64,000 bases of DNA from the IMG/VR virus record IMGVR_UViG_646311924_000007, positions 1 through 64,000 of that record; one strand, given 5' to 3'. Below, piece by piece: positions 448-27,495 of the stretch. Under the pieces are notes generated by a model. That model saw only the letters and a list, made by a program, of their open reading frames with translations. It had not been told where the DNA came from and did not search any database. The translations under genes and the position numbers were made by a program. Each line of letters opens with the position of its first letter. Position 1 is the stretch's first letter. The DNA comes from a virus (Duplodnaviria; Heunggongvirae; Uroviricota; Caudoviricetes).

Positions 448-843
448 ATGTTTAATGGCCTGACAGATGCCAAGGTAAACGCCTTACTGAACGACGCAAA
501 ACAAAAAGCTGCTAACCCTGGAACGAATGAAAATGAACGTGCTATGGCTGTTGCAATTTGGGAGTTAGCAGAAGAAGTAAAGCGAAACCGCTTACTATAC
601 ACTCGGGTTTACCAGCAATTTGATGGTGCGAGCTGGATAGATATCGAAGAGGCTGAATATGCAACATGCAAAAAAGAAAAAAAGATTGTTCGGATTTTGC
701 ATAAAGCAGCAACCCCAATCACTGTAGAAATCCCCGATCACAGATATTTCGAGAACGATGATCTACCAGGGGATGTGATTCGAATTATTGATGAGATACT
801 TCATGAACAAGGCTTAACTGTTAAAATTACGCATAATAAATGA
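448..843 (+). CDS. hypothetical protein (131 aa), stop codon overlaps the cre ATG (ATGA)
   Basis: ORF in an AT-richer patch; translational coupling to cre; no recognisable domain. Confidence 0.5.
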   Translation: MFNGLTDAKVNALLNDAKQKAANPGTNENERAMAVAIWELAEEVKRNRLLYTRVYQQFDGASWIDIEEAEYATCKKEKKIVRILHKAATPITVEIPDHRYFENDDLPGDVIRIIDEILHEQGLTVKITHNK

Positions 844-1871
844 CTAATTCGTTAACCGTTCACCAAAATTTGCCTGCATTGCCGGTCGATGCAACGAGTG
901 ATGAGGTTCGCAAGAACCTGATGGACATGTTCAGGGATCGCCAGGCGTTTTCTGAGCATACCTGGAAAATGCTTCTGTCCGTTTGCCGGTCGTGGGCGGC
1001 ATGGTGCAAGTTGAATAACCGGAAATGGTTTCCCGCAGAACCTGAAGATGTTCGCGATTACCTTCTATATCTTCAGGCGCGTGGTCTGGCAGTAAAAACT
1101 ATCCAGCAACATTTGGGCCAGCTAAACATGCTTCATCGTCGGTCCGGGCTGCCACGACCAAGTGACAGCAATGCTGTTTCACTGGTCATGCGACGGATCC
1201 GAAAAGAAAACGTTGATGCCGGTGAGCGTGCAAAACAGGCGCTGGCGTTCGAACGCACTGATTTCGACCAGGTTCGTTCACTCATGGAAAATAGCGATCG
1301 CTGCCAGGATATACGTAATCTGGCATTTCTGGGGATTGCTTATAACACCCTGTTACGTATAGCTGAAATTTCCAGGATCAGGGTTAAAGATATCTCACGT
1401 ACTGACGGTGGGAGAATGTTAATCCATATTGGCAGAACGAAAACGCTGGTTAGCACCGCAGGTGTAGAGAAGGCACTTAGCCTGGGGGTAACTAAACTGG
1501 TTGAGCGATGGATTTCTGTCTCTGGTGTAGCTGATGATCCGAATAACTACCTGTTTTGCCGCGTCAGAAAAAATGGTGTTGCCGCGCCATCATCCACCAG
1601 CCAGCTATCAACTCGCGCCCTGGAAGGGATTTTTGAAGCAACTCACCGATTGATTTACGGGGCAAAAGATGACTCTGGTCAGCGATACCTGGCCTGGTCT
1701 GGACATAGTGCCCGTGTCGGTGCCGCGCGAGATATGGCCCGCGCCGGAGTTTCAATACCGGAGATCATGCAAGCTGGTGGCTGGACCAACGTAAATATTG
1801 TCATGAACTACATTCGTAACCTGGATAGTGAAACGGGGGCAATGGTGCGCCTGCTGGAAGATGGCGATTAG
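840..1871 (+). CDS. cre: Cre tyrosine site-specific recombinase (343 aa)
   Basis: Translation matches P1 Cre almost residue for residue as I remember it (MSNLLTVHQNLPALPVDATSDEVRKNLMDMFRDRQAFSEHTWK...); adjacent loxP. Confidence 0.97.
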   Translation: MTNSLTVHQNLPALPVDATSDEVRKNLMDMFRDRQAFSEHTWKMLLSVCRSWAAWCKLNNRKWFPAEPEDVRDYLLYLQARGLAVKTIQQHLGQLNMLHRRSGLPRPSDSNAVSLVMRRIRKENVDAGERAKQALAFERTDFDQVRSLMENSDRCQDIRNLAFLGIAYNTLLRIAEISRIRVKDISRTDGGRMLIHIGRTKTLVSTAGVEKALSLGVTKLVERWISVSGVADDPNNYLFCRVRKNGVAAPSSTSQLSTRALEGIFEATHRLIYGAKDDSGQRYLAWSGHSARVGAARDMARAGVSIPEIMQAGGWTNVNIVMNYIRNLDSETGAMVRLLEDGD

Positions 1872-1888
1872 CCGTTTATTTGCGCTTG

Positions 1889-1905
1889 ATTGCTCTAATT
1901 ATTTG
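1889..1905 (+). promoter_or_regulatory. C1 repressor operator-like site (ATTGCTCTAATTATTTG)
   Basis: 15/17 match to the P1 C1 operator consensus ATTGCTCTAATAAATTT, immediately upstream of ORF 1922. Confidence 0.6.
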
Positions 1906-1921
1906 ATATTTATGGTGACAC

Positions 1922-2233
1922 ATGCGGAAGGATTTCAAAATAGACGGAAAATATGTGGTGCTGTCTGTAAGCTCTCAAATTCAGTCACCATCTGTCATGG
2001 TCACCGTAAAGTTGAGCGATAGGATGCCTGATATCGACTCGATATCTGTTGCGTTCCCCGTTAAAAGCATGCGGAGTGCTGAACATTTTGTGATGAATGC
2101 AACGGAGGAGGAAGCGCGGCGCGGGCTTACTAGAGTGATGGCGGAATTTGGCGAACTCCTGGGTAAGGTAAACAATGCCCTTTCAATCAGTTCAGCAAGA
2201 TCCAAAGCGTTAACAGCTTCCATGATGAAATAA
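1922..2233 (+). CDS. hypothetical protein (103 aa) behind a C1 operator
   Basis: ORF with ATG start; operator upstream; no HNH or other motif seen. Confidence 0.45.
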   Translation: MRKDFKIDGKYVVLSVSSQIQSPSVMVTVKLSDRMPDIDSISVAFPVKSMRSAEHFVMNATEEEARRGLTRVMAEFGELLGKVNNALSISSARSKALTASMMK

Positions 2234-2257
2234 AAAAAGCCTGGCAAGGAGCCAGGC
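2233..2257 (-). terminator. hairpin GCCTGGC-AAGGA-GCCAGGC with U-run on the minus strand
   Basis: Stem-loop followed by a T-run on the minus strand, downstream of the minus-strand ant-like gene. Confidence 0.5.
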
Positions 2258-2445
2258 TGCACAAAAGAGCGGGTTTGTATTCCGCATCCAATCAATCAAG
2301 AAGGAGTATAGCACACAGGTACTGAAGTAAAAATGTGATAAACATGAAATGAAATATCTTCTATTGCTCTAATTTGGAGGTATAATTGAGCCGCAGTTTT
2401 AGTCAACTACAAAAACATTGCCATTACAGACTCCGTGACATCATT

Positions 2446-2469
2446 GGCGGCCTAAAGGCCGCCTTTTTT
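2446..2469 (+). terminator. rho-independent terminator GGCGGCC-TAAA-GGCCGCC-TTTTTT
   Basis: Perfect 7-bp stem plus T6 run on the plus strand. Confidence 0.7.
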
Positions 2470-2471
2470 AA

Positions 2472-3587
2472 TCACTCAGCCGCTACAGGCTTTAATAAAC
2501 CAGCGTCAAGCAGCTTACGCGTCAACCACTGTTGGCCTTTCCCCGTTAGCTGGGGCGTCAACCGTATCTGGTAGCCATCTTCATCATCCAGTACCACTTC
2601 TTTCACCGTGAAATACCCGGCGTTGATGTATTGCTGGAACGGTACATTTTTACGTCCGCCAGACGCAATCAGGATGCCGTTCTCACGCAACCAGGCAAAC
2701 AGTGCGTTTTGCTTCAGTCCAACAACCTTTGCAAAATTCCCAATCAGGATCCCCTTAGCCACTGATACCCGGTCGGCAAAATCGACTTTAGGGGCTGCGG
2801 CCACCAGCTGCTGATTTAGCTGGTGGGCTTTCTGTTCCAATAGTTGCTTTTGTTCAGCCAGCTCGGCAGCCAGGCGTAGGGCTTCTGGTAATGTTTGGGG
2901 GATTGCGACCGGTTGCTGTTCTTTTTGTCGGAAGTAGCTGTCTTCCAGTTTTTCAAAGAATGCCCATGCCTGATCGGTTTCGAGCATTTTAGCGTGACGG
3001 GCAGCTCCTCGTTCTGTCCACAGGATGAGAGAGCGCGCTTTGGGGGAGACTGGATTTTGTGAGTAGTTTAAAGCTACCCGCAAATTTTTCAGCTCATCGC
3101 CAATAACCTTGAAAAAGTGCTTCCCTTCAACAAAGCGTACTTTGTTCTCATGATGATTTTGGCGAATACGGATTGTTTCTGTCCCATACCCTCTAGCAAG
3201 AGTCTCGGTTGTCACTACACGCACTCCCAGCCATTCCAGAACGGGAATTTCATCAGACTGATTCTGAACAACCACCAGCTCTGACTCCTGAACTGAAGGC
3301 GCATGAACTTTTTCTGATTTAACGTTAGTTGCTTTCATTCTGTGTGCCTCCTTGCGTGTTTCGGCTGCGACGGTTGCGTAATTCAGATGACCCTGTTCGA
3401 GCAGGTATTCGCGGATATCAGACAGCAGGATGCGGTGAACCGCGTTCTTGTCCTTTCTCCGGTAAAGTTGTTTGGTGATCATGAAGTAGTTGGCTATAAC
3501 GCCTGGTATATCCCTGGTACTGATACAAGCAGTGTGCTGTTCAATTGCCTCGATCATCTCTTCACGGGTGACTAATGACGTTCTCAT
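2472..3587 (-). CDS. antirepressor-like protein with Rha-like central domain and KilAC-type C-terminal domain (371 aa from the ATG overlapping the icd stop)
   Basis: N-terminal 90 aa and C-terminal 120 aa nearly identical to the ant product at 40942-41979; central part differs and resembles phage Rha regulatory proteins; ATGA overlap with upstream icd-like gene. Confidence 0.75.
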   Translation of the reverse strand: MRTSLVTREEMIEAIEQHTACISTRDIPGVIANYFMITKQLYRRKDKNAVHRILLSDIREYLLEQGHLNYATVAAETRKEAHRMKATNVKSEKVHAPSVQESELVVVQNQSDEIPVLEWLGVRVVTTETLARGYGTETIRIRQNHHENKVRFVEGKHFFKVIGDELKNLRVALNYSQNPVSPKARSLILWTERGAARHAKMLETDQAWAFFEKLEDSYFRQKEQQPVAIPQTLPEALRLAAELAEQKQLLEQKAHQLNQQLVAAAPKVDFADRVSVAKGILIGNFAKVVGLKQNALFAWLRENGILIASGGRKNVPFQQYINAGYFTVKEVVLDDEDGYQIRLTPQLTGKGQQWLTRKLLDAGLLKPVAAE

Positions 3588-3805
3588 AGTCCCTCCTGAG
3601 CACAAGCGTTTACAGGGAGGCACCAGTAACTGAGAGAATTGCGCAAATCGGTAGAAAAACGGGCGGAGAAAATGCAGGGAGCATCCGGAAGCTGAGAGCG
3701 AGCCTCATCTTCTGTCGGTGCAATAACGAAGTGATAGTGACGTTTCTGGCAGGAGTAGAAGCGCCAGATGAATTCAGGGCGTGCGCAAGGATTGGCATTA
3801 ACCAT
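3584..3805 (-). CDS. Icd-like protein (73 aa), second copy
   Basis: MVNANPCARPEFIWRFYSC... paralogue of the icd product at 40724-40945; same length. Confidence 0.75.
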   Translation of the reverse strand: MVNANPCARPEFIWRFYSCQKRHYHFVIAPTEDEARSQLPDAPCIFSARFSTDLRNSLSYWCLPVNACAQEGL

Positions 3806-3838
3806 AGTTACGGCCTCATGTACAGGTTTAACAACCTG

Positions 3839-3919
3839 CTACCCGCTGTCAAACAGGTGGCAGGACGTGACGGGGTTGACAGACTGGCGTACATGAAACC
3901 AGCAGGCCGAAGCCTCCCC
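3839..3919 (-). ncRNA. c4-like antisense immunity RNA, variant specificity (approximate bounds)
   Basis: Mirror image of the 40610-40690 region with substitutions confined to mutually complementary elements (CATGTAC vs GTACATG; stem CTGTCAA/TTGACAG). Confidence 0.55.
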
Positions 3920-4121
3920 ATCACGCCCCACCATAATTTGGGCGTAACGCGGTTTTACGGACATAAAAATACCGCAATATCGGAAATCTGCGGTTATCCG
4001 CATGTACATTCAGGCTGTCAAACCCGGTCGCAGAATTTGCTACGACGGTGGAACTATAAGCCTGAACGACGGGAAGATCAATAGTCTGGTGTCAATGGTA
4101 GTATTTTTGCCCCAATAAATC

Positions 4122-4138
4122 AAATTCATTAGAGCAAT
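4122..4138 (-). promoter_or_regulatory. C1 operator-like site (minus strand ATTGCTCTAATGAATTT)
   Basis: 16/17 match to C1 operator consensus, upstream of the c4-like/icd-like/ant-like module. Confidence 0.6.
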
Positions 4139-4246
4139 ACAAATCTGGTTGAATGTTTCCTCTCCGAGGTTGCAATGTGCACACTTATTGTTTTATTTGT
4201 ATGCACTAATAAATATATTATTTTTAATGATAAATGATTGACAACT

Positions 4247-4270
4247 GACAAGTGACTTCAGTCAGAATCA
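4247..4270 (+). promoter_or_regulatory. putative late promoter (GACAAGTGACT element plus -10-like CAGAAT)
   Basis: Same AACAAGTGACT-N5-TAnnnT arrangement recurs upstream of prt, lyz, pmgC-like and the capsid-like gene. Confidence 0.4.
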
Positions 4271-4398
4271 TCACACGCCCGGTACGGATGGATCCCTTTT
4301 CAAATATTCCATGGACGGCACAGTCTGAGTACCGGGCGCTACCTTCAGTTGTATTGCTAAGCCGCCGCTGGTGGCTTTTCTTTTTTGTAGGGGGCGCT

Positions 4399-5040
4399 AT
4401 GGATAAGAAAATATGCGTTGTTTCGATGAGCGTCGGCAAACCGGCGTCAATGACTGCTGCATGGATCAACAACGAGCTGATAATGGCTGAGCGGACCAGC
4501 TACCCTGAACGCCGCCGCGATATGGAACTCCAGCTGCTGCGCGAATTGCGAGAAAAAGAGGAAAAGGGTTTTATCGTGCTGGTGGAAGAGGAAAACAGCT
4601 TTATTACTGGTCGAGTTGGCCAGCGTGTAAGGTTGCGCGATCCCTTCATGAACGGCAGGCCGGTACTGATTGAAGCAATGCAGATTTACAAGGAGCTGGA
4701 ACGCCAGAAAGCGATCAAGTTACCGCGCAAGGAATCCGGCAAATACATCCTCCACCAAAGCATCTTCGATTCCGAACACGATAAAAAAGGCGATGAATTT
4801 TTCAACATCAACTGGAGTGAAATAACGACAGAGCATGTTCTGACGTTACTATGTTGCTTTGCGACGGAATACAACAACGTTGCCAGCGCCGACTACATCA
4901 GGGCAATGGCTGGAGAAGTTGAGGCCCGCCAGGAACCATCGTTACTAAGCCCTCTGATTAACATAATTCGCGGAACCCAAACACTGGCGCAAAAACAAGT
5001 ACCACGAGGGGAATTGACGGGTAAAGGTAATTATCTCTGA
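4399..5040 (+). CDS. hypothetical late protein (213 aa; longer ORF from 4252 unlikely)
   Basis: ATG at 4399 with GGGGG RBS; late-promoter-like element upstream; no domain recognised; could correspond to P1 mat by position. Confidence 0.45.
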   Translation: MDKKICVVSMSVGKPASMTAAWINNELIMAERTSYPERRRDMELQLLRELREKEEKGFIVLVEEENSFITGRVGQRVRLRDPFMNGRPVLIEAMQIYKELERQKAIKLPRKESGKYILHQSIFDSEHDKKGDEFFNINWSEITTEHVLTLLCCFATEYNNVASADYIRAMAGEVEARQEPSLLSPLINIIRGTQTLAQKQVPRGELTGKGNYL

Positions 5041-5079
5041 AAGATGCCCGGCGACAGACCGGGCAAAAGGGCGGAAAGT

Positions 5080-5328
5080 TTAATCAGCATTCAGGAGCAA
5101 TGCGTTATCTATGATGATCTGCTCCCATTCTTCGAATGCCCGATCGCGGACGCCCTGGGGAACGCTGTTAGTTTTGAAATCGACGACCGTCCGCCATTTC
5201 CCGTCCGGACGGTACATGCGCAGAGCTTTACTTCCCCCTTCCCTGCGCACCTCAACGTTATGCTTGTCAGCAAACTCTTGTAATGCTCGTAGCGTCCCAT
5301 GCTTTACTGTGTAGTATCGCTTTTTCAA
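5080..5328 (-). CDS. lxc: Lxc/Bof-like C1 co-repressor (82 aa)
   Basis: Size and position downstream of ulx-like and darB as in P1; assignment by synteny and length. Confidence 0.55.
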   Translation of the reverse strand: MKKRYYTVKHGTLRALQEFADKHNVEVRREGGSKALRMYRPDGKWRTVVDFKTNSVPQGVRDRAFEEWEQIIIDNALLLNAD

Positions 5329-5765
5329 GTTTTCTCTCCAGCCTGTGCCAAGGCTTCAACTTCCAAATCGTAAGACTCAAACTCATAGTCCTGGTCGTCA
5401 ACTTCTTCAGGCACTGGCAGTAAATGCCAGGCTGAGTATATCTGACCATTATCAAAACGCTCCTGGCTGTAGAGCGTCGCGGCTATGAGTGTTAGCGCCG
5501 GGCGGTCATAACGGTAAATTTTGCGAACGTCACGGTCAACGAGACGACCGAAATTACCATAACCGCGCTCCAGTAATAATTTTTTAATTTCCGGCCAGTA
5601 TGGGCCATAGCTGCGGTACAGGCGGGGATTTTTCAGTAATCGCCCACGTAGCCCTGACAGGAAGAAATCAACGTATTCGTCTTCTGTCTTTCCTAACAAC
5701 GCCGTACGCAGTACCGCCTCAAGATATGTTTTATTCGGTTTTATTGTATCAGATAGTGTGGCCAT
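5325..5765 (-). CDS. ulx: Ulx-like protein (146 aa)
   Basis: Position between darB and lxc; synteny-based. Confidence 0.5.
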   Translation of the reverse strand: MATLSDTIKPNKTYLEAVLRTALLGKTEDEYVDFFLSGLRGRLLKNPRLYRSYGPYWPEIKKLLLERGYGNFGRLVDRDVRKIYRYDRPALTLIAATLYSQERFDNGQIYSAWHLLPVPEEVDDQDYEFESYDLEVEALAQAGEKT

Positions 5766-5798
5766 ATTATGCGACGCCCGGCGAACCGGGCGCTCCTG

Positions 5799-8700
5799 TT
5801 ATGCGTATTGTTGGATGACGGCCAGAACGTCCGCCACGTTGTGTTTTGTCTCGATAATCCACCAGTTACCCGGGAAATCGCTGTTCTTCGCCTTCGCTGG
5901 CAGCCAGCGAGCGCCGAATTTCGCCTTGATTGCGTCTTTCGCACGGAAAAGAACGCCTTTCATGCCTGAGGCTTCCTGAAGCCCAAATACCTCGCCAGCG
6001 GCGAATTTTGGTGCGTACATCATCTTCAGGTCGGCGGTGGATACGCGATAATTCAGACCAAGAGACTGAGCTATGCTGGTGGCATCACCCTGTATTGATG
6101 ATAACTCTTCTTGTTTCTCGTTTCTGGCGGCAATTTCTTCCTCCGTGATGTTGCCAAGGGCCAGGTTTATCCGATCAGCGTCGGCCTGTTTCTCTTCATC
6201 GGTGCGCCCGGCAAGAACCGTGTTAATTCTCTGCAATATCTCCACATGATTCTTGCGCATGCTGAGCAATTCCGGCGTAACCTCGTTAAGATCCACCAGC
6301 CCAAGGATGGCAAGGTCGGAAAACATTGATACCAGGTTGTAGGTCATGCGATAGCTGAGTTGACCATAGGCTGATGGCAACTTCACCGCATCCATTTGAT
6401 AGGCATCCATAAATTTAGAGCCGTCGTTTACGACATCCGCAATTGCAGGTGTGATTTTCCCTGTGGTGGCGGCCTCCCTGATTGCTGTTACCCACGATTG
6501 AGTCAGTGCGGCGACTGCATGATTCAGATTGGCTTCCCGTTCTGCTGCGATACGCGCGCTTGCTGCGTCCATTGCCTGCTTGATCTCGGCTTTATTGCTG
6601 TAAATGCCAATGGTGCCAAACTGTGCTGTGGTGATCTCATAATCTGACGCCCGGAACTCATGGGTACCGAAAATGGCATTGGTGACCTCAAGTTCAGAAT
6701 CCCCGTTACGAGTAGCCCCCTGGCTTGTTTTCTCCGGCATTCTGGCGATCGCATCCGCTATTTTCTCCTGAATTGCTTCAGGGGATAGCGTATCTCCATA
6801 TGACGCGATTACATCGCCATAATTGGAGCCAAACAGTTCAGTCAGGAATACTTCTGCCAAACGGACCTGGCGGTTATTCCCTTCAGACATCATACCAAGC
6901 ACCCATTTTGCAATTGACGACTTCAGCGCGCCGTCACGGCGATCCGGGTAAACCGCATGCTTCAGTGGGTCCGTATAGGTACCAACAAAATCAATGCTAT
7001 AGCCTGACTCTGTAGTCTGAACGCCGTATGAGTCAGTGATTTTGATCATGCCGCGCTGCTGGAAACGGTAGAAATCGTCACAGGAAATGATGTCGTTAAT
7101 CCCGGCGATGGAGACGCCACCACTGATTTTCTGCATAACAGCATCTTCATCGGGAGTTACATCAACCTGTTTATCCAGCGTCTTCACATCCCAGTTACCC
7201 GATTTGGTACCTTTGAAGGTAAAGATAATCTCCACGTCTGCGCGCTGGCTGTCGAAGTCCAGCGACTTAATGCGAACGATATCACCGGCACAATCGTAGT
7301 ATTGGCCTACACGCCATGAGCGATCGCCGATAATAAGGAACTCACTCGCATGGTTAACCAGGTCAGGATCAACATCCAGAATGCCTTTATTTATTGCATC
7401 CTCCACCAGCGGGCGAAGGCGTTTGATATCCGTCGCGGCCTTCTGAGTACGGTTCAATAATTTCTCATAGCGGGAGATGGCTTGAGAGATATTAGCCTTG
7501 CGCTGAATGGCGCTTTTCAACGACGCGCGATACTGTGCTAACAACGTACGGTCTGTGTGATGGACGCTACCCCAGCGGGCTTTCCAGTCTGCGTTATCAG
7601 CTGCTTTGGCCATTACCGCCTGTTTGAATTTGGCGACGTCGGCGGTGGTCTTTTCGAGTTCCGCTTTTCTTCGCTCTAATTCAGCGGTAAGCACCTCCAC
7701 ATCCTCACCAGCTGCGTGCTGCGCCTTGATGTAGTTCTGAAGGTCGATAGTAGCCTGTTCTTTCTGGCGAGCGCGTTGCGCGGCTTTCGCCTTATCCATT
7801 TGAACCTGCATCATTGCCAGACGTTCGCCATCATCCTTAGCGGTATACATCTGCATTTCGATCATATCGTTGGCGTCGGCGTTCTCCATTTCTGACTTAT
7901 CTGAACGGAGGATATCGGAGATCCAGCCTGCTTTACGCTTCAGCGTCTTCAGTCGGTATTCATCGAAAGAACCCTTGCCGCAGTAGTAGTGAACGCGAAC
8001 GCTTGCACGGTTGGAACCAACTCGGGCACCGCGACCGTTACGCTGTGCGATACTGGCTGGTGTCCATGGCAACGTCAGATGATGGATGTCAGTCGTTCCT
8101 CGATGCAGGTTGATACCCACCTCTGCCTTTTTGTTGCAGATGATGATCGGAGTCCGGCCCTCCTGGAAGTCGGCAGCAATCTTTTCCAGCCCGCCCAGCG
8201 ACATTTCATTTTGCTGCGCGATATAGGCGTCATACAGAGCCATTTGCTCGTTGTATTTCGCTATCTGTGCATCTGTTGGTTCATCCGGTAGCTCTTTCGG
8301 CGGTTTAACCGCTTTCAGTTTCTTACCGGTTTTACCTGCCTCGGCAACCGTCTGAGCATTCAGTATCCCCACCTTTGAAGGTTCAAGGTTAAGAGCATTG
8401 CAGATAATGCGCTTGAGCTTCTGGTGCTGCGTTTTTTCATCGGTGAAGATGATTTGCTTACCTTCCGGGAAAAACTCCTTCAGCGTGGCAATCAGCTTCG
8501 CGTATTTGGGCGTAACGGGGTGAGTTACGGTCTGTTCGTCAATGCCAAACCTGGCCAGGCGCTTATTCACTTCCTGCTCGAACGCTTCCGGAACCTGCAA
8601 CTGAATAAACTCGCCCTTATCTATCAGGGAGTATTGCGATTGCTGCGTGATTGAATCATCACTGTCGTCGTCTTCGCTGGTGGCTTGTTTAGGCAAACTG

Positions 8701-11700
8701 TCCGCCAGCTGCTGCACCGCATCTGCGTACTCCGGCAGGAAACGATAGGTGATCCGGCGATAGTACAGGTCCATGTCAGTACATACGCGGTCCATATCCC
8801 TGATTATTGAGAAGATCGGACGGGCTTTCTCGTGCTCAATCACGCCGTCTTCATTGACCGAGGTCGTTACGCCATTGTTGGCTTTGGCCGCCGCTTCCGC
8901 CTGCTGACGCAATTCTTCATACGCCGCCAGTTGTTCTTCAGTAAGTGGTGCATCCTGCTGGTGTTCGTCCAGCTCCGGGATCTCCACGGTATCCTTAACG
9001 TCTTCCGCCGTTTTAAGCGTTACCCAGCGATGGAATATACCGCGCAGCGCATCAAGGTTTTCAAAGCCCACCAGCGCCATTTTTTCTTCAACTTCACCGC
9101 TGATTTTCTGTACCGTTTCCAGCCTGGTCTTGCCGAAGAATTTAACGAAGTCATCAGGACCGTAGATCCCCATCTTCTGCCAGTATTCCTTCGGCAGAAC
9201 ATGAGAAAGCATGTTGTATGCATCGATCGGGGTGTTAACGACTGGCGTTGCAGTCAGGAGAACCGGCCCGCGCCCGCCATTCTTTTTCATCAGGTACGCG
9301 TTTTTGATTGCCATATCCCGCGCCGATTGCGCCACCGCGCTGGTGGGCAGATAGGCCAGTTGTGACGCTTCGCGACCATTTTTATAGCTATTGCGGTAGT
9401 TGTGACCTTCGTCGGCGATCACACTATCGAAGCCCATATCCTCAAAGTACGGATACTTCTCTGCTTTTTCGGTACCGGTATCTGAATACTCCGACAATAC
9501 CCAGCGACGCGCCGCCTCTTTACGATGGGAGTCGGAATCCATTGCGCTGGCTACGCGCCCGGCGGCAACGAAGTCATAAAGCATGTCTTGTGCATGCTCA
9601 TCTACGGTGTCATCACGTAGCGGAATGCGGGCGTATTGTTCTTTGGTAAACACGACTGCACGGTAATTTGAGTGCGGGATCGCGTTCATCCGCGCCGTGA
9701 TAGTGGCTTCATCTGCCAGCTTAAGAGCATCGCGCATAACTGGAGTGCCATCAGTACCAAGAACAGGTTTACCGTTCTCATCGAGCACCGGCACCTGGCG
9801 AATCTGATCGCCATCCATCAGCACATCAAGACCGACGAACAGGTAGTTACTGAATGCCTCTTCACTCAGGAACTCTTTTGCTTCGTAATACCAGTTTTCC
9901 AGCACTGATTTAGGCACTACATAAGCAGTACGGGTGGAGCGACCGTTCTCATAGTTGAACGCCTCAAGCGCCAGCGCGGTCGTGGTTTTACCCAGCCCGG
10001 TGCCGAAGCCCAGGATGCCGCGCCCATCTTCGGACAGTCGGCGCACCTCGCTATTCTGGTAATCAAATGGCTGGCGCTTACCGCTTAATCCCTTCAACCC
10101 AAGCGGATCGCCAGAGTGTTCATACGGGATATTGCTATTGAACACATCGTTGTATTTGGCAACCAGCTCATCGTAGCGATCGTGCGTCTTGATCCACTTA
10201 TTGAACTGGTCCTCAAGCAGTGCCATCTGCTCGCGGTAGCCGTTCGCCGTCGCGCTATCTTTGCCACCGATACGCGCACCATTGAGATACTTTTCCAGCT
10301 GTGCCGGGAACCCGGTCGCGTTTTCACCTGATTTACGGTCCCACTCGTAGCGGATCTCGCCTGTTTCTTTATCCTTGCGCTGGACGACACCGTATCGGTG
10401 CCCGACGAACAGACCATCACCACCGTGATAGGTGTCAGAAACCATTTCGTCGCCTTCCAGCTGCACTGACTGCACATAGCGCAGATCCGGATAGCCGTTT
10501 TCCTGCAAAAACTCCAGAATGACGGAGCGGTCGAACCAACGGCTATTGAGCTTAAAGCGGATATTCTCTGCTGGCGTCTTGATGCGCTTCTCTTCGATCG
10601 CTGCCAGCTGATTAAGGACGTTGTTCTTTACTGGACCGTCGGGGAGCGTGGCGAGGAATTCCTGTTTTGGAGCCACTATCTCGTTAATGTCGCCGCTGGT
10701 GGCGCGGGCGAACGGAACAATCCCGCCATACGGTGAAACCACAATGCCAGGGGTGCTGGCCAATAAATTAAGCAACTCATCATCACTGGCTGGCAGTTCG
10801 CCGGTAAACGCAAGGCGGAAATCATCGAGCTGGATTGGATCGCGAGTGAGATCACTGTAGAGATAACGCAGGGTGTCCTGATAGCTGGTGGAGTCATAAC
10901 TGGCGCTGGAATCATGCGTAACCAGTTTTCCTGTCAGCTCGTCAGAAATAGTGCCATCCAGCTTAATTGCACCACGGAAAGCAAACCAGGCGCGCGCACC
11001 GCTCCCCGATAATTTCGCTATCGGACCGCGACCGGGGTTACCAAAACGGTCAATCTCTGCCTGCAAACGGGATACCAGAGAAAGGCGCTGCTGTTCGATT
11101 TGTTCAGCACTATGCCCGGCGGCCTTCATGTCCTGATATTCAATTAACATCCGGCCAATCATCGCCCCGCGATACAAGCGTTCACGGTATTTTTCAGGCT
11201 GGCTGTTAATCCAGTCCACCAGCTGCACCATATCGTCGCTGATTGATGTGGTGTACTTATCGCGGACATTTGCCATCTGGGTAAATGTCATGCCGAGACG
11301 GCCTTCTGTTGTAGTCAGGTTACGCTGAAGAGCCTCCCAGCTATCCGCGCCATAACTGGCAGCATCGATCTTAAGTTCCTTCCCGGCATCAGCTTCAATC
11401 CAGCGACCACCAGCATATTTTTGCCATACGCCATTAATCAGGCGCATTTCCCCTTCACCAACAACGTCTGCGGTCGGTGACGGTTCAGCCATATCGAGCA
11501 AAGACCAGTCGATACGGCTTTCGAAACGATGAATCAGCTTCGCTTTAAGAGCCTGGTTATCAATCTGACCGTCGGCACGAACCTCAATACGCCCCCGGAA
11601 GCCCTTTTCTTGGGTGCCATGAACAAACCGGCGGCCATCCTTTTCAAACCACTTGCCAGAAATAAACGTTGGCCAAAGCACATTTGCTGATTCAAGAGTG

Positions 11701-12566
11701 CTTTCATCCACCAGGGGGATTTTCTCAGCCATCTCTGCCGGATGTTTGCGCATCAGCACCACATCTACGACCGTACTGGTCCCGTTTGCGTCAAAAGTAC
11801 CGGTAGGCAAGCGGTGGGCACCAAGAAATTCTGCTTTCCGTGATAGGCGCAGGCGTAACCGCTTCATGTTTGAACCTGAAACAATGGACGGCGGCACAAT
11901 CACGCACATGAATCCGCCTGGCTTTATCTTGTCCAGCATGCGGAGCATGAAGTAAGAACCCATGTCCGTTTCTTCTGCGTAAGGCTTATCGATGTTGCGT
12001 GTGTTATCACGACCGCCGAACGGAACGTTACCCACAACATGGTCGAATGAATCGTTAGGTGTGCTTATAGCCAGCTGTTCGAACGGGGAAATCTGTACGC
12101 TGTCTTCCGGGTGTAACAACTGGTTTATACGACCGGAAACACTGCTGATCTCAGTCGCAGTCATCACCGTACCAACCGGTTTTGTCTCATTAAAAACGCC
12201 GGTGCCCGCCGATGGTTCCAGAGTGTTACCTACGTCCGCGCCGTAGAGCTTCATGATCTCCCAGACACCTTCAGCGATCGGCTTTGGTGTGTAATATTCG
12301 GAGACGGACCCGCCAATGCCGCCTTCACCGGTGTACCCAGCCAGGATCTGGCGCTGTTCATCTGTCAGTGTCGCGCCGTCCACCAGTGAATTAAGCAAAT
12401 CTATCGCCTTCTGATTCGCCTCCCGGCGCAGTCGGTCATAGCTTTTGCCTTCCACCTTTTCCACGCCGTATTTAATCGGCGCTCGGTGAGATGTTATTGC
12501 CCTAATGTATTTCAATATTTCGCTGACACTTGAACAGCGAAACACCCCCATAGATAGCTTGTTCAT
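5799..12566 (-). CDS. darB: DarB antirestriction protein (2255 aa) with N6-adenine methyltransferase-like and helicase (GFGTGLGKTT Walker A) regions
   Basis: Giant ORF of the length I recall for P1 DarB; helicase motifs visible; synteny with ulx/lxc and prt. Confidence 0.9.
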   Translation of the reverse strand: MNKLSMGVFRCSSVSEILKYIRAITSHRAPIKYGVEKVEGKSYDRLRREANQKAIDLLNSLVDGATLTDEQRQILAGYTGEGGIGGSVSEYYTPKPIAEGVWEIMKLYGADVGNTLEPSAGTGVFNETKPVGTVMTATEISSVSGRINQLLHPEDSVQISPFEQLAISTPNDSFDHVVGNVPFGGRDNTRNIDKPYAEETDMGSYFMLRMLDKIKPGGFMCVIVPPSIVSGSNMKRLRLRLSRKAEFLGAHRLPTGTFDANGTSTVVDVVLMRKHPAEMAEKIPLVDESTLESANVLWPTFISGKWFEKDGRRFVHGTQEKGFRGRIEVRADGQIDNQALKAKLIHRFESRIDWSLLDMAEPSPTADVVGEGEMRLINGVWQKYAGGRWIEADAGKELKIDAASYGADSWEALQRNLTTTEGRLGMTFTQMANVRDKYTTSISDDMVQLVDWINSQPEKYRERLYRGAMIGRMLIEYQDMKAAGHSAEQIEQQRLSLVSRLQAEIDRFGNPGRGPIAKLSGSGARAWFAFRGAIKLDGTISDELTGKLVTHDSSASYDSTSYQDTLRYLYSDLTRDPIQLDDFRLAFTGELPASDDELLNLLASTPGIVVSPYGGIVPFARATSGDINEIVAPKQEFLATLPDGPVKNNVLNQLAAIEEKRIKTPAENIRFKLNSRWFDRSVILEFLQENGYPDLRYVQSVQLEGDEMVSDTYHGGDGLFVGHRYGVVQRKDKETGEIRYEWDRKSGENATGFPAQLEKYLNGARIGGKDSATANGYREQMALLEDQFNKWIKTHDRYDELVAKYNDVFNSNIPYEHSGDPLGLKGLSGKRQPFDYQNSEVRRLSEDGRGILGFGTGLGKTTTALALEAFNYENGRSTRTAYVVPKSVLENWYYEAKEFLSEEAFSNYLFVGLDVLMDGDQIRQVPVLDENGKPVLGTDGTPVMRDALKLADEATITARMNAIPHSNYRAVVFTKEQYARIPLRDDTVDEHAQDMLYDFVAAGRVASAMDSDSHRKEAARRWVLSEYSDTGTEKAEKYPYFEDMGFDSVIADEGHNYRNSYKNGREASQLAYLPTSAVAQSARDMAIKNAYLMKKNGGRGPVLLTATPVVNTPIDAYNMLSHVLPKEYWQKMGIYGPDDFVKFFGKTRLETVQKISGEVEEKMALVGFENLDALRGIFHRWVTLKTAEDVKDTVEIPELDEHQQDAPLTEEQLAAYEELRQQAEAAAKANNGVTTSVNEDGVIEHEKARPIFSIIRDMDRVCTDMDLYYRRITYRFLPEYADAVQQLADSLPKQATSEDDDSDDSITQQSQYSLIDKGEFIQLQVPEAFEQEVNKRLARFGIDEQTVTHPVTPKYAKLIATLKEFFPEGKQIIFTDEKTQHQKLKRIICNALNLEPSKVGILNAQTVAEAGKTGKKLKAVKPPKELPDEPTDAQIAKYNEQMALYDAYIAQQNEMSLGGLEKIAADFQEGRTPIIICNKKAEVGINLHRGTTDIHHLTLPWTPASIAQRNGRGARVGSNRASVRVHYYCGKGSFDEYRLKTLKRKAGWISDILRSDKSEMENADANDMIEMQMYTAKDDGERLAMMQVQMDKAKAAQRARQKEQATIDLQNYIKAQHAAGEDVEVLTAELERRKAELEKTTADVAKFKQAVMAKAADNADWKARWGSVHHTDRTLLAQYRASLKSAIQRKANISQAISRYEKLLNRTQKAATDIKRLRPLVEDAINKGILDVDPDLVNHASEFLIIGDRSWRVGQYYDCAGDIVRIKSLDFDSQRADVEIIFTFKGTKSGNWDVKTLDKQVDVTPDEDAVMQKISGGVSIAGINDIISCDDFYRFQQRGMIKITDSYGVQTTESGYSIDFVGTYTDPLKHAVYPDRRDGALKSSIAKWVLGMMSEGNNRQVRLAEVFLTELFGSNYGDVIASYGDTLSPEAIQEKIADAIARMPEKTSQGATRNGDSELEVTNAIFGTHEFRASDYEITTAQFGTIGIYSNKAEIKQAMDAASARIAAEREANLNHAVAALTQSWVTAIREAATTGKITPAIADVVNDGSKFMDAYQMDAVKLPSAYGQLSYRMTYNLVSMFSDLAILGLVDLNEVTPELLSMRKNHVEILQRINTVLAGRTDEEKQADADRINLALGNITEEEIAARNEKQEELSSIQGDATSIAQSLGLNYRVSTADLKMMYAPKFAAGEVFGLQEASGMKGVLFRAKDAIKAKFGARWLPAKAKNSDFPGNWWIIETKHNVADVLAVIQQYA

Positions 12567-16381: not shown

Positions 16382-16870
16382 GTGGCACAACGCGGTGTAA
16401 ACAAAGTCATCCTGATTGGCACCCTGGGGCAAGACCCGGAGATCAGGTATATACCAAATGGCGGCGCGGTCGGAAGACTCAGCATCGCAACGAATGAATC
16501 ATGGCGCGACAAGCAAACGGGCCAACAGAAAGAGCAAACAGAATGGCATAAAGTCGTTTTGTTCGGAAAACTTGCTGAAATTGCGAGTGAGTATTTACGA
16601 AAAGGTTCTCAGGTCTACATCGAAGGGAAACTTAAAACCCGTAAGTGGACAGATGACGCCGGTGTAGAACGTTACACGACGGAAATTATCGTCAGCCAGG
16701 GCGGCACCATGCAAATGATCGGCGCTCGTCGCGACGATTCACAGTCCACAAATGGCTGGGGGCAATCAAACCAACCTCAAAACCACCAGCAATACAGTGG
16801 TGGCGGTAAACCTCAGAGCAACGCTAATAACGAACCTCCAATGGACTTTGACGACGATATTCCGTTTTGA
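16382..16870 (+). CDS. ssb: single-stranded DNA-binding protein (GTG start, 162 aa)
   Basis: Strong similarity to E. coli SSB including the C-terminal DDDIPF tail; AGGTAAG RBS. Confidence 0.95.
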
Positions 16871-17067
16871 ATGTGTAAAAAACGACTGAAAAAAAAGCGG
16901 TGGTCCAGACGCCGACAAAAGCACGAACTCGCTCAAAAACGCCAAAGTTGGCAATGGCACGCGCTTTTAACGAATAGAACACCCCGAGATATTGCTTTCG
17001 CTGGTGGGAAAACATTCCTAACCAACCTGAAGGCGCAATACATCAGTTTTTAAGCAGAGAAAAGACT

Positions 17068-17856
17068 ATGACAGCACAAAATACTAAAACCATTCAATAC
17101 CGCCTACGTAATGGCCAGAGTGTCGAAGTGACCGTCAATAATGATGGAGTGCCAGGCGAAACGGTTTCTATCTCTGATCTGGCTATCGAAAAAACCATCA
17201 TGTGCCACCTTGGCTTTACTGAAGAAGTGAGCAAAAAGCATGGTGTAGCAATCTGGAGCGCAATGGATACTGGTATGCGCAGATTCATTACTGCTCGTAC
17301 CCCAGGGATGACCATGATGGACCTCATGCAGATTGCGCCGCTGTTTGAGTGTGAACCTTTGGATGTATTCAGCAATCCAGCTATCTGCCAGCAGTTATAT
17401 GGTGAGATGAAACTCGCGGTTACCCCCATTGTGCTGCATGAAGGATCGCTTGCTGGCGTATGGAAAGTAGAGCGAATTTCAAGCTACATGCCTTTCCATG
17501 TCAACGGCGTAATCACTGGTGAAAATCAACCTGTTTCCGTTATAAAGTCAGACCTCAAGCGCGCAATTCTTGAAGCAAGTTGTCGAGTTGTCGGCCTGGG
17601 CAAACAGTCTTATGTTTCCTTCCCGGCTGGCCCTGAAGGCCCGGCAGAAATTCTGATTATGGATGCCGATCTGCTCTGGCAAATACAGTTTCTGATTGGC
17701 AAAAGCATCATCCGCGATGAAGAACTAGATCAGTACATTACCTGCACGATGACGGATGAAGTCAAAAGTGTGGCTATAGCCAATGCCCGGAACCTATGTC
17801 GTGCTGCATTAACAGAACTGCAAGAAAACACCACGGGAGAAGTGGAAAGTGATTAA
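17068..17856 (+). CDS. hypothetical protein (262 aa) downstream of ssb
   Basis: Clean ORF ending at an intrinsic terminator; no recognisable motif. Confidence 0.55.
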   Translation: MTAQNTKTIQYRLRNGQSVEVTVNNDGVPGETVSISDLAIEKTIMCHLGFTEEVSKKHGVAIWSAMDTGMRRFITARTPGMTMMDLMQIAPLFECEPLDVFSNPAICQQLYGEMKLAVTPIVLHEGSLAGVWKVERISSYMPFHVNGVITGENQPVSVIKSDLKRAILEASCRVVGLGKQSYVSFPAGPEGPAEILIMDADLLWQIQFLIGKSIIRDEELDQYITCTMTDEVKSVAIANARNLCRAALTELQENTTGEVESD

Positions 17857-17860
17857 AAAG

Positions 17861-17890
17861 AACCCGCCAATTGGCGGGTTCTTTATTTAT
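17861..17890 (+). terminator. rho-independent terminator AACCCGCC-AATT-GGCGGGTT plus U-run
   Basis: 8-bp stem followed by CTTTATTTATT. Confidence 0.8.
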
Positions 17891-18102
17891 TGAATTAGCA
17901 TTCAACTCCCGATTGTTATAGCGAACACTATGTAACAGAATAATATTATTAACATTTTAGTAATAAGTTGATTATTCATCTTCTGTATTCGCAAAGCGTA
18001 AGTATTGCTCATAGTTTCTTATTCCAGTACATTGTGATTCGTTGAGGCAAAAGAATAGTGGCAATTCTACTGGCAATAAACTCAAGTAAGAGGTTGTAAA
18101 CA

Positions 18103-18390
18103 ATGGAAAAACTGAACAATTTCTTAGACAAAATATCCACCCCAAACACTCGCGCAGGCCACACTATTACCCGCATAGCTAAGCTAAGCGATGCGGGTGT
18201 CAGTGATGACGTAATCGCACTTCAACTGTCCAGTAACAGTGCAAATGGCTTCCGATATACAGCAGATGAAATAAAAGCGTATAAGAAGCTCCACAATGAT
18301 GTAAAAACTAAAGTGGGAATTACATCCAAACAAACAAAAGCATTAATCAAAGATCAAGAGCTGACTTTTGTTGCATTGCCTCAAAACTAA
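18103..18390 (+). CDS. hypothetical small protein (95 aa) in AT-rich segment
   Basis: ORF with GAGG RBS; flanked by AT-rich DNA. Confidence 0.45.
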   Translation: MEKLNNFLDKISTPNTRAGHTITRIAKLSDAGVSDDVIALQLSSNSANGFRYTADEIKAYKKLHNDVKTKVGITSKQTKALIKDQELTFVALPQN

Positions 18391-18418
18391 ATTTGTTTAA
18401 AGCTATAGCTAACAAAGA

Positions 18419-18464
18419 GTTATAAGAGCGATAGTGATAAATTTATCATTGTCGCTCTTATAAC
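18419..18464. repeat. 46-bp near-perfect palindrome GTTATAAGAGCGA-TAG-TGATAAATTTATCA-TTG-TCGCTCTTATAAC
   Basis: 13-bp arms plus palindromic 14-bp core read directly; lies between convergent genes. Confidence 0.8.
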
Positions 18465-18593
18465 CTTGTTAAAGATAAGAATATAACCCAAAAGATATAC
18501 ATGGGTTATTAAGGCCATAATTATCAGGCAAATAACATGAAGTCGTCTATGTGATGGATGAAATTTGAACAATCAATTCTATGCCAATTCCTG

Positions 18594-18914
18594 TCAATAC
18601 AAGAGTTGGTTTACTGTTTCATCACTAAAAACCTCTTCATCGTCATCATCATCCTCATCGCCACCATCTACTGCTGGCCAATCAACAAACCAGCCAGCGT
18701 AAAGATGCAGCGTTCGGAGAACATCACTTGCGGGAGCATCAAGGGTGTTAACGAATCCCATATAGCTATTGGGATTTGCCCCAGCTATGGCTTCAGCGAT
18801 CATGTCCTCGGTAATGTCACCGGAGATAATGCTCAAACGCCCGGAAACTTCTTCATTATCATCAAATTCGATAATGGCATCTCCGCCTAATGGCGCTGCG
18901 ATTTTAATCTGCAT
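18594..18914 (-). CDS. acidic hypothetical protein (106 aa) at the 3' end of the dar operon
   Basis: ORF overlapping the ddrB stop; Asp/Glu-rich tail. Confidence 0.45.
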   Translation of the reverse strand: MQIKIAAPLGGDAIIEFDDNEEVSGRLSIISGDITEDMIAEAIAGANPNSYMGFVNTLDAPASDVLRTLHLYAGWFVDWPAVDGGDEDDDDDEEVFSDETVNQLLY

Positions 18915-21891: not shown

Positions 21892-21903
21892 CCCTGTTAC
21901 GCC

Positions 21904-22269
21904 TTATGCTGCCTCTTTAATGTTGGCGGCTATCCATGCCGCCGTGTGCTGTTTAACCTGGTCCAGGTCGATGTATGTGCCAACATATTGACTCAAGTCC
22001 TGCAAGGTACCGATAAATGCATCTGTGCTCTGATCGACGAATTTATCAGCCAGGAAATCAGCAACCAGTTTTGGCACACCATCATGTACCGAAGGTTGTT
22101 TTTCCTCGCCACTACTGCCGCCGGACGCGCCGTACCCCATCTGTTGCATGATCTGGTCAATTTCATCGCTGATATCCAGCAACTCCATGCCACTCGCGGT
22201 AGCCGCTTTGGACATCAGAGCATCCAACTTATCGCTGAGATCCATTAACTCAATAGCTGATAGTGTCAT
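21904..22269 (-). CDS. ddrA: DdrA-like protein (121 aa)
   Basis: Synteny directly downstream of darA. Confidence 0.55.
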   Translation of the reverse strand: MTLSAIELMDLSDKLDALMSKAATASGMELLDISDEIDQIMQQMGYGASGGSSGEEKQPSVHDGVPKLVADFLADKFVDQSTDAFIGTLQDLSQYVGTYIDLDQVKQHTAAWIAANIKEAA

Positions 22270-24185: not shown

Positions 24186-24186
24186 G

Positions 24187-24798
24187 TTAATTTCCTGCTT
24201 TCAGTTGCTTAAGACGGCGTTTGAGTTCGCCATTTCGGGCCTTTTCGTTATTGAGTCGGCCTGTCTCCTTATCCAGCTTCGCCCGCAAATCAGTGATCTG
24301 CTGTTGATTGAAAGACACCGAGTTCTGCGCTGATTTATAAGCGGCAACCACCTGAGCATTCCGCTGTTTTGCCTCTTGCAGGCGCTGAAAGTTGGATTTT
24401 ACTGCCGGTTTCTTGTCTACCGGATTGGCAACACGTTTCGCTTTGGCGATCAGTGATTTCTGGAATTTTGCGGAGTTTTTGCGGGCCGCTTGCCCCATGA
24501 CGGTACCAAGCGTCTTGATATCCGGCGACTGAGCGTTAGGAATAGCTTTTCCATTCAGCCTCACAGACGATATATCGCCAGTATCGTTTACCTGTATGGC
24601 AAGAATTTGTCCGTCGTTAAGAACCAGCTTTGCGGTTTTAACTTTAACGCCATCTTTCGTTGTTGCGCGGTTGCTGGAGTCAACCTCAATTACCGTAACA
24701 CCGGTTTTATTGATCGCCGCGATAAGGGATTTCAGCCCCTTTTCATTAACCTGGTCAAAATCGACCGTTGCATACTTATTTTTCGTCATCTGACACAT
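24187..24798 (-). CDS. hdf: Hdf-like protein (203 aa)
   Basis: Synteny upstream of darA. Confidence 0.55.
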   Translation of the reverse strand: MCQMTKNKYATVDFDQVNEKGLKSLIAAINKTGVTVIEVDSSNRATTKDGVKVKTAKLVLNDGQILAIQVNDTGDISSVRLNGKAIPNAQSPDIKTLGTVMGQAARKNSAKFQKSLIAKAKRVANPVDKKPAVKSNFQRLQEAKQRNAQVVAAYKSAQNSVSFNQQQITDLRAKLDKETGRLNNEKARNGELKRRLKQLKAGN

Positions 24799-26300: not shown

Positions 26301-26873
26301 ATGTTATGTTACTTAATAGCTATTCACTTTGTCATCTTCGGGAATTCAAAAGCTCTATTGAGCTACTGGATGGCTGAAATCATCAGGCGTGAAAAAATGG
26401 ATGTTTGGCGACTATTAAGAGAGAAGAAGCAGCGCAATCGGAATTTCCTTTTCTGGTGGAGACTGGCTAATGAAATGTATATTAATGGCAATAAATTACA
26501 TAAGAAAGCAGCCAGAAAGTTAAACAATAATATAATTAACAGATTTGGTTGCGAAATTGGATTGGGCGCAAATATTGGAAAAGGTTTAACAATTCCCCAT
26601 CATACTGGAATTGTTGTTCATTTTGCTGTTGATGCTGGTGAAAATCTGGTTTTGCGACAGAATACTACCATTGGACAGGTAGATGGTGACATGCCTGGTT
26701 CAAGAGTAAAAATTGGTAATAACGTTGATATCGGAGCTAATTGTTGCATCATTGGATTATCACGTAAAATTGGGGATAATGTAAAAATAGGTGCAATGTC
26801 TTTTATAAATAAAGATATACCATCGAACTGCACATATATAACAAAAAAGAGCGGTGTTGTATTGTATAAATAG
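26301..26873 (+). CDS. hexapeptide-repeat acetyltransferase, serine-acetyltransferase/WcaB-like (190 aa; start may be 26370 or 26397)
   Basis: Left-handed beta-helix repeats (IGLGANIGKGLTI, IGNNVDIGANCCI, IGDNVKIGAMSFI); low GC. Confidence 0.7.
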   Translation: MLCYLIAIHFVIFGNSKALLSYWMAEIIRREKMDVWRLLREKKQRNRNFLFWWRLANEMYINGNKLHKKAARKLNNNIINRFGCEIGLGANIGKGLTIPHHTGIVVHFAVDAGENLVLRQNTTIGQVDGDMPGSRVKIGNNVDIGANCCIIGLSRKIGDNVKIGAMSFINKDIPSNCTYITKKSGVVLYK

Positions 26874-26920: not shown

Positions 26921-27495
26921 TGCGGGGCGACTGGCCACTCAACATCCGATGCTACTGTTGTATCAACACGATTCAACAATACCCGATATGTCTTCCATGC
27001 AGTCAGTAACGATGCCTCTTCCTCCGTCGCAATATCCAAATCTACGGCATCCTGAAGTGGCGCAATATGCTCACTGGCCATCTGCATCAGGCTGTTTTTT
27101 GTTTCTTCCGCCTTCCGGATCCGGAACAGTTTTTCTGCTTCTGCATCTTTCACCCAGGCTGTGCCGTTCCACTTCTGAAACTCCCCTTCCGGGGATAACC
27201 AGGTGACATTTTCCGGTAATGGGCCAAGTTCAGAAATAAATAACGCGTCGCCGGAAGCCACGTCATAGACGGTTTTTCCCCGATGGTCTTCAACGAGATT
27301 CCACGATGCCTCATCACTGTTGAAAACGGCCACGAAGCCAGCCGGAATATCTGGCGGGGCAATATCGGTACTGTTTGCAGGCAGACCTGTATGAGGTGGA
27401 ATGTATGCATCACCTTCACCAATAAACTCATTGGTTCCGGTCAGTAGATTATAAATTTTTATGGTCCGTGATTGTTCACTCATTCTGAATGTCAT
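26917..27495 (-). CDS. U: tail fibre assembly protein (192 aa)
   Basis: Start overlaps the tail fibre stop (TAATG); typical Tfa size and position. Confidence 0.75.

Follow-up and report, generated by a model that had tools for sequence, protein, structure and literature searches.

The cre-lxc interval of a P1-like phage-plasmid: res-mod slot empty, ref slot filled by a second immI module

In phage P1 the genes that follow cre are arranged in the order c8, ref, mat, res, mod (carrying IS5), and lxc; P7 has the same order, with EcoP7I. A 64,000-nucleotide (nt) stretch of viral DNA (positions 1 to 64,000 of IMG/VR record IMGVR_UViG_646311924_000007; hereafter, the window) contains cre and lxc, with no Type III restriction-modification (R-M) genes res and mod between them. 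What does this interval hold instead, and what does the absence of res-mod say about the phage? An earlier note, made from the sequence alone, remarked on the absence and gave the P1 order as cre-ref-mat-res-mod-lxc, which is right for both P1 and P7. The answer proposed here, with a probability of roughly 0.88, is that the cre-lxc segment is P1-like, with both of its variable slots in non-P1 states: the mat-lxc slot is empty, and the c8-mat slot holds a second immI module.

Composition of the cre-lxc interval

The first nucleotide of the window aligns with that of P1 (lox), and the 64 kilobases (kb) are collinear with P1 at 93-98% identity except for a few replaced segments. The cre-lxc interval spans 3209 base pairs (bp), versus 8.3 kb in P1 (cre stop at 1467 to lxc stop at 9750). 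The closest complete relative is the Escherichia coli plasmid pC21-4 (NZ_CP052881), with 98-99% identity over most of the window and 99.1% over 837-4922, where it is again the closest. Judged by the pC21-4 map, the window stops close to the tRNA/ban region and covers about two thirds of a ~94-kb genome; the ~26 kb beyond it include the phd/doc-proximal variable region, pacAB, and c1. Features of the interval that have P1 counterparts, and the junction between the last two genes, are as follows (aa, amino acids).

840-1871, plus strand: cre; the interval starts after its end.
1889-1905, plus strand: site resembling a C1 operator, ATTGCTCTAATTATTTG, which departs from the consensus at 3 positions; it lies upstream of c8.
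1922-2233, plus strand: c8, 103 aa, a putative lysogeny-establishment gene (phrog_1968); 90% identical to P1 C8 and of equal length.
4201-4217, plus strand: Omat operator, identical to P1 2629-2645; the right edge of the ref replacement.
4288-5040, plus strand: mat; the P1 start gives 250 aa, with 96.4% identity to P1 Mat.
5041-5079: empty mat-lxc junction, a 39-bp spacer with the hairpin GCCCGGcgacagaCCGGGC at 5046-5064.
5080-5328, minus strand: lxc, 82 aa; 100% identical to P1 Lxc.

The earlier note had put the interval at about 3.2 kb and described in it a C1-controlled 103-aa open reading frame (ORF), a variant c4-icd-ant module, and a 213-aa ORF. The size is confirmed, and so is the module, on the minus strand at 2470-4200. 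The 103-aa ORF is c8; its control by C1 is plausible, given the imperfect operator-like site at 1889-1905, whose P1 counterpart reads ATTGCTATAATTATTTG and is not called as an operator in the P1 annotation. The 213-aa ORF (4399-5040) exists as reported, but its identity had been missed: it is mat, by the start annotated in the Escherichia P1-like phage-plasmid RCS47 (FO818745 / NC_042128). Also missed were the position of the module, exactly at the ref site, and the presence of the canonical immI module at 40.4-42.0 kb.

The absence of Type III res-mod between cre and lxc is borne out by tblastn, blastn, and profile scans. Searched by tblastn against the whole window, P1 Res and P1 Mod gave only noise (best E values 7.4 and 0.76, respectively), and blastn of P1 3424-9742 at word size 7 gave only chance matches of 21-24 nt elsewhere in the window. 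When the interval ORFs were scanned with Pfam, PADLOC, PHROGs, and NCBIfam profiles, the only domains recognized were those of Ant (ORF6N and KilAC) and Icd; there was no ResIII or helicase match in Pfam and no methyltransferase domain in any of the scans, in agreement with the motif search of the earlier note. Nor did the visible 64 kb yield a Res or Mod homologue. PADLOC found no restriction endonuclease family among 60 window ORFs with DarB and Dmt set aside; with these two included (62 non-overlapping ORFs), the 25 of 59 matched families that were listed were methyltransferase or DISARM-type families only. DarB and Dmt are the only methyltransferases of the window, and DarB is its sole ResIII/SNF2 match. 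The window therefore lacks both subunits that define a Type III system: Res, with SF2 helicase motifs and a PD-(D/E)XK nuclease, and Mod, an N6-adenine methyltransferase encoded beside res. The slot that is empty here is filled in P1 and P7.

The empty mat-lxc junction

The mat stop codon (5038-5040) and the lxc stop codon (5080-5082) are separated by 39 bp, which include the hairpin listed above (fold -17.4 kcal/mol, z -2.1). P1 has at this position the 6.3-kb res-mod segment with IS5. Similarity to P1 ends at window position 4995 (P1 3423, 45 nt before the mat stop) and is back at 5073 (P1 9743, 7 nt before the lxc stop). Between 4940 and 5100 the window matches RCS47, which likewise lacks res-mod, at 161 of 161 positions, and the same junction is found base for base in IMG/VR contigs.

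This locus is a published variable region, and the absence of res-mod from it is already known. Venturini et al. (2019) described res-mod as hot spot RD-1, missing in all three of the P1-like plasmids studied (PMC6906374); one element, pSvP1, has icd-ant1/2 homologues in RD-1 (PMC6906374). Among the eight variable regions listed in a survey of 54 P1-like phage-plasmids, res-mod is region 1 (PMC9603915), and Pfeifer and Rocha found that phage-plasmids often exchange defence systems, R-M above all (PMC10879196). The window belongs to the same region: its junction lies between mat and lxc-ulx-darB, whose proteins are 96-100% identical to those of P1; the content of the slot varies among near-identical relatives; and the cargo is AT-rich. 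The window represents the empty state. The proposal of the earlier note that the interval is a cargo-exchange site is thereby well supported, and was already in print as RD-1 (PMC6906374) and region 1 (PMC9603915). In those papers, as here, res-mod is missing from the locus. There, however, element-specific ORFs take its place, whereas in the window the res-mod slot is simply empty and it is the ref slot that has been replaced; C4 specificity was not analysed in either paper.

How common is the res-mod-less state? The plasmid database PLSDB holds 72,556 plasmids, and a match to any part of a 401-nt junction-spanning probe was taken to approximate the P1-like set. The following numbers are approximate, being blast hit counts that come from different queries and include redundant or clonal records.

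699 records: match to any part of the junction probe (the approximate P1-like set).
30 records: uninterrupted empty junction.
108 records: EcoP1I-like res at any identity.
66 records: EcoP1I-like res at 90% identity or more.
42 records: the remaining EcoP1I-like res, at 80-90% identity; the sampled ones are ~42-kb Klebsiella/Enterobacter plasmids.
66 records: one particular SIR2 cassette.

About 90% of P1-like plasmids are without the Type III system of P1, and P1 and P7 are the unusual ones. At least 11 distinct slot contents occur across the relatives: besides SIR2, the cargo includes DUF2971 (pC21-4), GNAT, PIN, EAL plus HTH, RelA/SpoT, YaaC, and MBL-fold genes, a 132-aa ORF (E. albertii), a different Type III allele (plasmid pE2855-2), and c4-icd-ant modules. 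The cargo has a guanine-plus-cytosine (GC) content of 35-36%, the backbone 48%, and the cre-lxc interval 47.7%.

A second immI module in place of ref

The gene ref is present in 649 PLSDB plasmids (~93% of relatives) and absent in the window. Homology to P1 stops at window position 2469 (P1 2069) and resumes at 4201, exactly at Omat. The 1731 bp between these points form a complete, inverted immI-type module comprising a C1 operator, C4 RNA, the a and b target sites, icd, and ant.

2363-2379, plus strand: remnant of the ref operator/promoter; the Oref core ATTGCTCTAATT is kept and the last 5 nt are changed.
2446-2469, plus strand: GGCGGCCtaaaGGCCGCC, a terminator-like hairpin with T6 after it, which lies downstream of the ref promoter; the left edge of the ref replacement.
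2472-3587, minus strand: ant1, 371 aa (Pfam ANT 1.7e-31, ORF6N 1.4e-19; phrog_63).
3584-3805, minus strand: icd, 73 aa (NCBIfam phage_ICD_like); the P1 arrangement, a stop codon that overlaps the start of ant (ATGA), is kept.
3853-3938, minus strand: C4 antisense RNA gene (Rfam RF01695; 70.7 bits, gathering score 45).
4007-4059, minus strand: a1/b1 element, the target of C4 RNA, to whose loops it is complementary (Rfam RF03163; 57 bits, gathering score 46.7).
4122-4138, minus strand: C1 operator, the Oc4/Op51 equivalent, with 1 mismatch to the consensus.

All of the elements that identify an immI locus are present: a C4 gene with a1/b1 upstream; an Op51-type operator; icd and ant coupled through the ATGA overlap; and C4 loops complementary both to a1/b1 and to a2/b2, just upstream of icd. 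The Ant protein of this second module is 55% identical to P1 Ant1. Its amino-terminus and its KilAC carboxyl-terminus are conserved, its central domain is ORF6N, and the likely internal start for Ant2, Met84 at about 3338, is conserved as well. This Ant would bind and inactivate C1, and the C4 of the module would repress ant in trans; both functions are putative, and the central domain is unlike that of P1 Ant1.

The c8-immI-mat arrangement recurs in at least 51 PLSDB plasmids. Replacement of ref by a second, differently addressed immI is the rarer feature of the interval, and the only one that might deserve separate attention.

Relatives and the states of the two slots

Comparison with individual relatives indicates how the two slots combine. 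P1 (NC_005856) and P7 (NC_050152) share the backbone of the window, with the order cra-cre-c8 ... mat ... lxc-ulx-darB, and have the same operators and mat late promoter. Unlike the window, they carry ref and a 5-6-kb AT-rich (35.7% GC) res-mod cassette, and they have a single immI module each. RCS47 shares the empty mat-lxc junction with its 39-bp spacer and has intact ulx-darB, but keeps ref between c8 and mat; its additional ant lies between pacB and c1 instead of at the ref site. Its humD-hot region is without R-M genes.

The closest relative, pC21-4, resembles the window in having a second immI of the same C4 specificity at the ref site, as do near-identical relatives from chicken and pig. 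It differs in carrying a DUF2971 gene between mat and lxc; in the second ant, which is a pseudogene; in the absence of an intein from dmt; and in a Type I hsdMSR system, which lies in the part of the genome that the window does not cover. The Shiga toxin-producing E. coli (STEC) plasmid pE2855-2 (NZ_AP018798) also has a second immI module at the ref site, although its C4 specificity is a P1/P7 hybrid, unlike that of the window. In other respects it is the reciprocal of the window: Type III res-mod is present, and ulx and most of darB are deleted. Its res-mod (5061-10460 of its locus) is ~92% identical to EcoP1I, with a divergent central part of mod and, presumably, a different specificity.

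A further difference concerns the region just before the interval. A 131-aa ORF (448-843, plus strand) lies between cra and cre and overlaps the cre start by 4 nt. It is found in 13 PLSDB plasmids, among them pE2855-2 (99.8%), and is absent from P1, P7, RCS47, and pC21-4. It had no match in Pfam, NCBIfam, PADLOC, or PDB sequences, and matched only PHROG 20152, of unknown function. The first 6 kb of the window are a mosaic in which the extra ORF is shared with STEC plasmids, the second immI with pC21-4, and the junction with RCS47. This combination turned up in no other record of INPHARED (phages), PLSDB, the complete E. coli genomes, IMG/VR (three diagnostic patterns), or the GTDB representative genomes.

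C4 specificities and a possible family of mobile immunity cassettes

The window also has an immI module at the usual site:

40393-41979, plus strand: canonical immI between sim and kilA, with Oc4, C4 RNA (40591-40676), icd, and ant (40942-41979); P7-type C4.

This module, at 40.4-42.0 kb, has ~95% DNA identity to P1. Beside it, two ORFs (39108-40323, minus strand) take the place of the P1 superimmunity region sim, one of 167 aa with no family match and one of 224 aa with a weak match to PTPlike_phytase (E 8e-6, just below the Pfam cutoff).

In both modules of the window, matches to the Rfam C4 and c4-a1b1 families exceed the gathering score. Eight modules (those of the window, P1, P7, and three plasmids) were aligned. 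Their scaffolds are near-invariant, and they vary at the elements known to set specificity, the b' loop (6 nt) and a' element (2 nt) of C4, which co-vary perfectly with both target pairs. In the second module, both b sites read GTACAT, complementary to b' ATGTAC, and both a sites read GA, complementary to a' TC. The canonical module reads ACAATC / CT (the P7 type), the second ATGTAC / TC. Because both elements differ, the two modules should be orthogonal, and we infer that the second is functional. The likely outcome would be two antirepressors that are independently repressed.

A pattern scan extended this comparison to 13 modules of six types, including repeat retrievals of the same plasmids, and the C4 loops were exactly complementary to both target pairs in 13 of 13. 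Such modules are found at other places too. In pLH10-b-1-B, the mat-lxc slot holds a cassette with the same C4 specificity as the second module of the window, and pLH50-c-C has another icd-ant cassette in that slot. Between pacB and c1, icd-ant cassettes occur in pE2855-2 (91508-92844 of its locus), pXJW9B263-2 (56173-57506), and RCS47 (103889-105004), making this the fourth site for them. These findings suggest, at close to even odds and slightly short of them, that the cre-lxc region belongs to a set of four or more landing sites (sim-kilA, c8-mat, mat-lxc, and pacB-c1) for mobile c4-icd-ant cassettes. The cassettes would act as immunity barcodes with at least six specificities, two of them orthogonal and present here.

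Might the second immI then be a payload that replaces res-mod functionally, as a device for competition and immunity between phages? Its C4 RNA would silence ant of incoming relatives, and its Ant would derepress resident ones. The heteroimmunity of P1 and P7 is an established model for such behavior, and the six specificity types with their perfect covariation fit it. The presence of icd-ant cassettes in the mat-lxc slot itself in pLH10-b-1-B and pLH50-c-C, and between pacB and c1 elsewhere, also speaks for a payload. However, the second immI occupies the ref slot and not the res-mod slot; its GC content of 49% is backbone-like and unlike that of typical cargo; its ant has decayed in pC21-4; and the role is read from sequence. 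A functional replacement of res-mod is a tentative proposal, rather more apt to be wrong than right.

Antirestriction genes, and whether the phage restricts

The earlier note had set the absence of res-mod against the intact dar genes, which lie in two groups, one after lxc and one farther along the window.

5325-12566, minus strand: ulx (5325-5765) and darB (5799-12566, 2255 aa), both intact.
18904-24798, minus strand: ddrB, ddrA, darA (22266-24185, 639 aa), and hdf, all intact.

The full lengths of DarB and DarA given in that note are correct, and Ulx, Hdf, DdrA, and DdrB are intact too: all six members of the set have the P1 lengths and are 96.7-99.1% identical to P1. The tension implied by "although" does not exist. 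Dar proteins are packaged in the head and injected, and protect incoming DNA against Type I enzymes of the recipient; EcoP1I is a prophage-encoded defence and addiction cassette. There is no paradox, because the two have different targets, concern different restriction types, and assort independently. In pE2855-2, the presence of Type III res-mod together with the loss of ulx and most of darB is an example of this independent variation. Co-adaptation of intact dar with absent res-mod was considered and rejected on these two grounds, independent variation and different restriction types.

The note also concluded that the phage protects its DNA without imposing restriction of its own. This cannot be concluded, as only some two thirds of the genome are seen and the hsdMSR genes of pC21-4 lie beyond that part. 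The phage may in fact restrict through an R-M system elsewhere, likely a Type I hsdMSR in the phd/doc-proximal region, in which case loss of the Type III system would be a replacement. In pC21-4, hsdM-S-R is at 65.6-71.7 kb, between phd/doc and the pmg genes, and this family is found on 672 PLSDB plasmids, many of P1-like size. Likewise, pSvP1 has acquired a Type I system at the same phd/doc-proximal place (PMC6906374). Set against these examples are RCS47 and pXJW9B263-2, which have the identical empty junction and yet a P1-type humD-hot region without hsd, and the visible 64 kb, which hold nothing R-M-like except orphan or antirestriction methyltransferases. A Type I replacement is on balance doubtful.

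How cargo is probably exchanged

Sliding identity to six relatives shows mat to be 90-100% conserved up to about 4900. Past ~4900-4950 identity drops, at a point that depends on the type of cargo, and each cargo type has a mat 3' end of its own: the last 90-140 nt co-vary with the cargo that follows. The individual mat 3' ends imply that homologous recombination, in mat and at the lxc end, would swap or remove the cassettes. The single-nucleotide polymorphisms (SNPs) of the window match pC21-4 up to 4473 and RCS47 from 4521 on, and this switch argues that the window itself is a recombinant with a crossover inside mat. A scan of the junctions for insertion sequence (IS) ends, target-site duplications, and recombinase genes found none; only C1-operator cores repeat.

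This suggests a model in which the mat-lxc slot is a recombination-driven cargo hot spot, with AT-rich cassettes that vary between flanks of at least 95% conservation. Cassettes would be exchanged or lost through homologous recombination in these conserved flanks, within mat and at the end of lxc, and neither transposition nor site-specific insertion would be involved. The window is itself such a recombinant, pC21-4-like up to about 4500 and RCS47-identical from there to 5100.

Alternatively, the empty junction might have arisen by recent deletion of a P1/P7-type res-mod from the direct ancestor, rather than as an RCS47-like allele gained by recombination. The Type III alleles (P1 and pE2855-2) continue to resemble the mat of the window as far as about 5000, beyond the point at which the other cargo alleles diverge, and pE2855-2, which carries Type III res-mod, shares with the window the rare cra-cre ORF and a second immI. 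Over the final ~45 nt of mat plus the spacer, however, identity to P1 and pE2855-2 is only 30-48%, versus 100% to RCS47, as would not result from a simple internal deletion; there is no remnant of res or mod, not even 25 nt; and the SNP pattern points to an RCS47-like donor from about 4500 onward. Recent deletion is improbable. An assembly artefact in which res-mod was collapsed or skipped is rejected as very improbable indeed: nothing was found to favor it, RCS47, 30 complete plasmids, and the IMG/VR contigs share the junction base for base, and it has no repeat able to cause collapse.

Several points weigh against the reading favored here, of a P1-like segment with both slots in non-P1 states. 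The ant gene of the second module is a pseudogene in the closest relative, pC21-4, and the function of this module is deduced from sequence alone. About a third of the genome lies beyond the window. The crossover in mat is drawn from only 7 informative SNPs, and the PLSDB counts are approximate. Finally, the empty state may be either ancestral or a secondary loss.

Other features of the window

The Dmt-like protein (58278-61319, plus strand), a fused C5-cytosine/N6-adenine methyltransferase, has 1013 aa, versus 754 aa in pC21-4. The difference is an insert of ~340 aa inside the C5-methylase domain (~58511-59532), which resembles an intein carrying a homing endonuclease of the LAGLIDADG type (Pfam matches Hint_2, LAGLIDADG_3, and Intein_splicing).

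The isaA / IS1 / isaB region (16870-18621) is unlike both P1 and pC21-4; the latter has ompC there. The tail-fibre invertible region contains a hexapeptide acetyltransferase-like ORF (26301-26873), and an Rfam IS009 match lies at 26954-27152. A match to sok antisense RNA (44128-44302, plus strand) coincides with the position at which pC21-4 is annotated with a hokD toxin gene, as in an addiction module of the hok/sok type. Three tRNA genes (61992-62235, plus strand) are present, as in other P1-like elements.

What the two slots mean

Most P1-like phage-plasmids lack EcoP1I res-mod, and as a statement about this phage its absence matters little. At this slot the textbook phages P1 and P7 are the atypical ones, and "missing relative to P1" carries no signal. 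The slot itself behaves like a defence island, receiving SIR2, PIN, RelA/SpoT, DUF2971, Type III R-M, and icd-ant cargo.

If the proposal of mobile immunity cassettes is true, the element would, as a prophage, be immune to two classes of relatives and, as an invader, escape lysogens that have only one C4 type. The restriction slot of P1 would then serve, across the family, phage-versus-phage immunity in addition to host defence. The C4 modules would supply RNA repressors and targets in naturally orthogonal pairs, and their multiplicity and combinatorial specificity provide a testable model of superinfection immunity for the co-circulating phage-plasmids that spread resistance genes.

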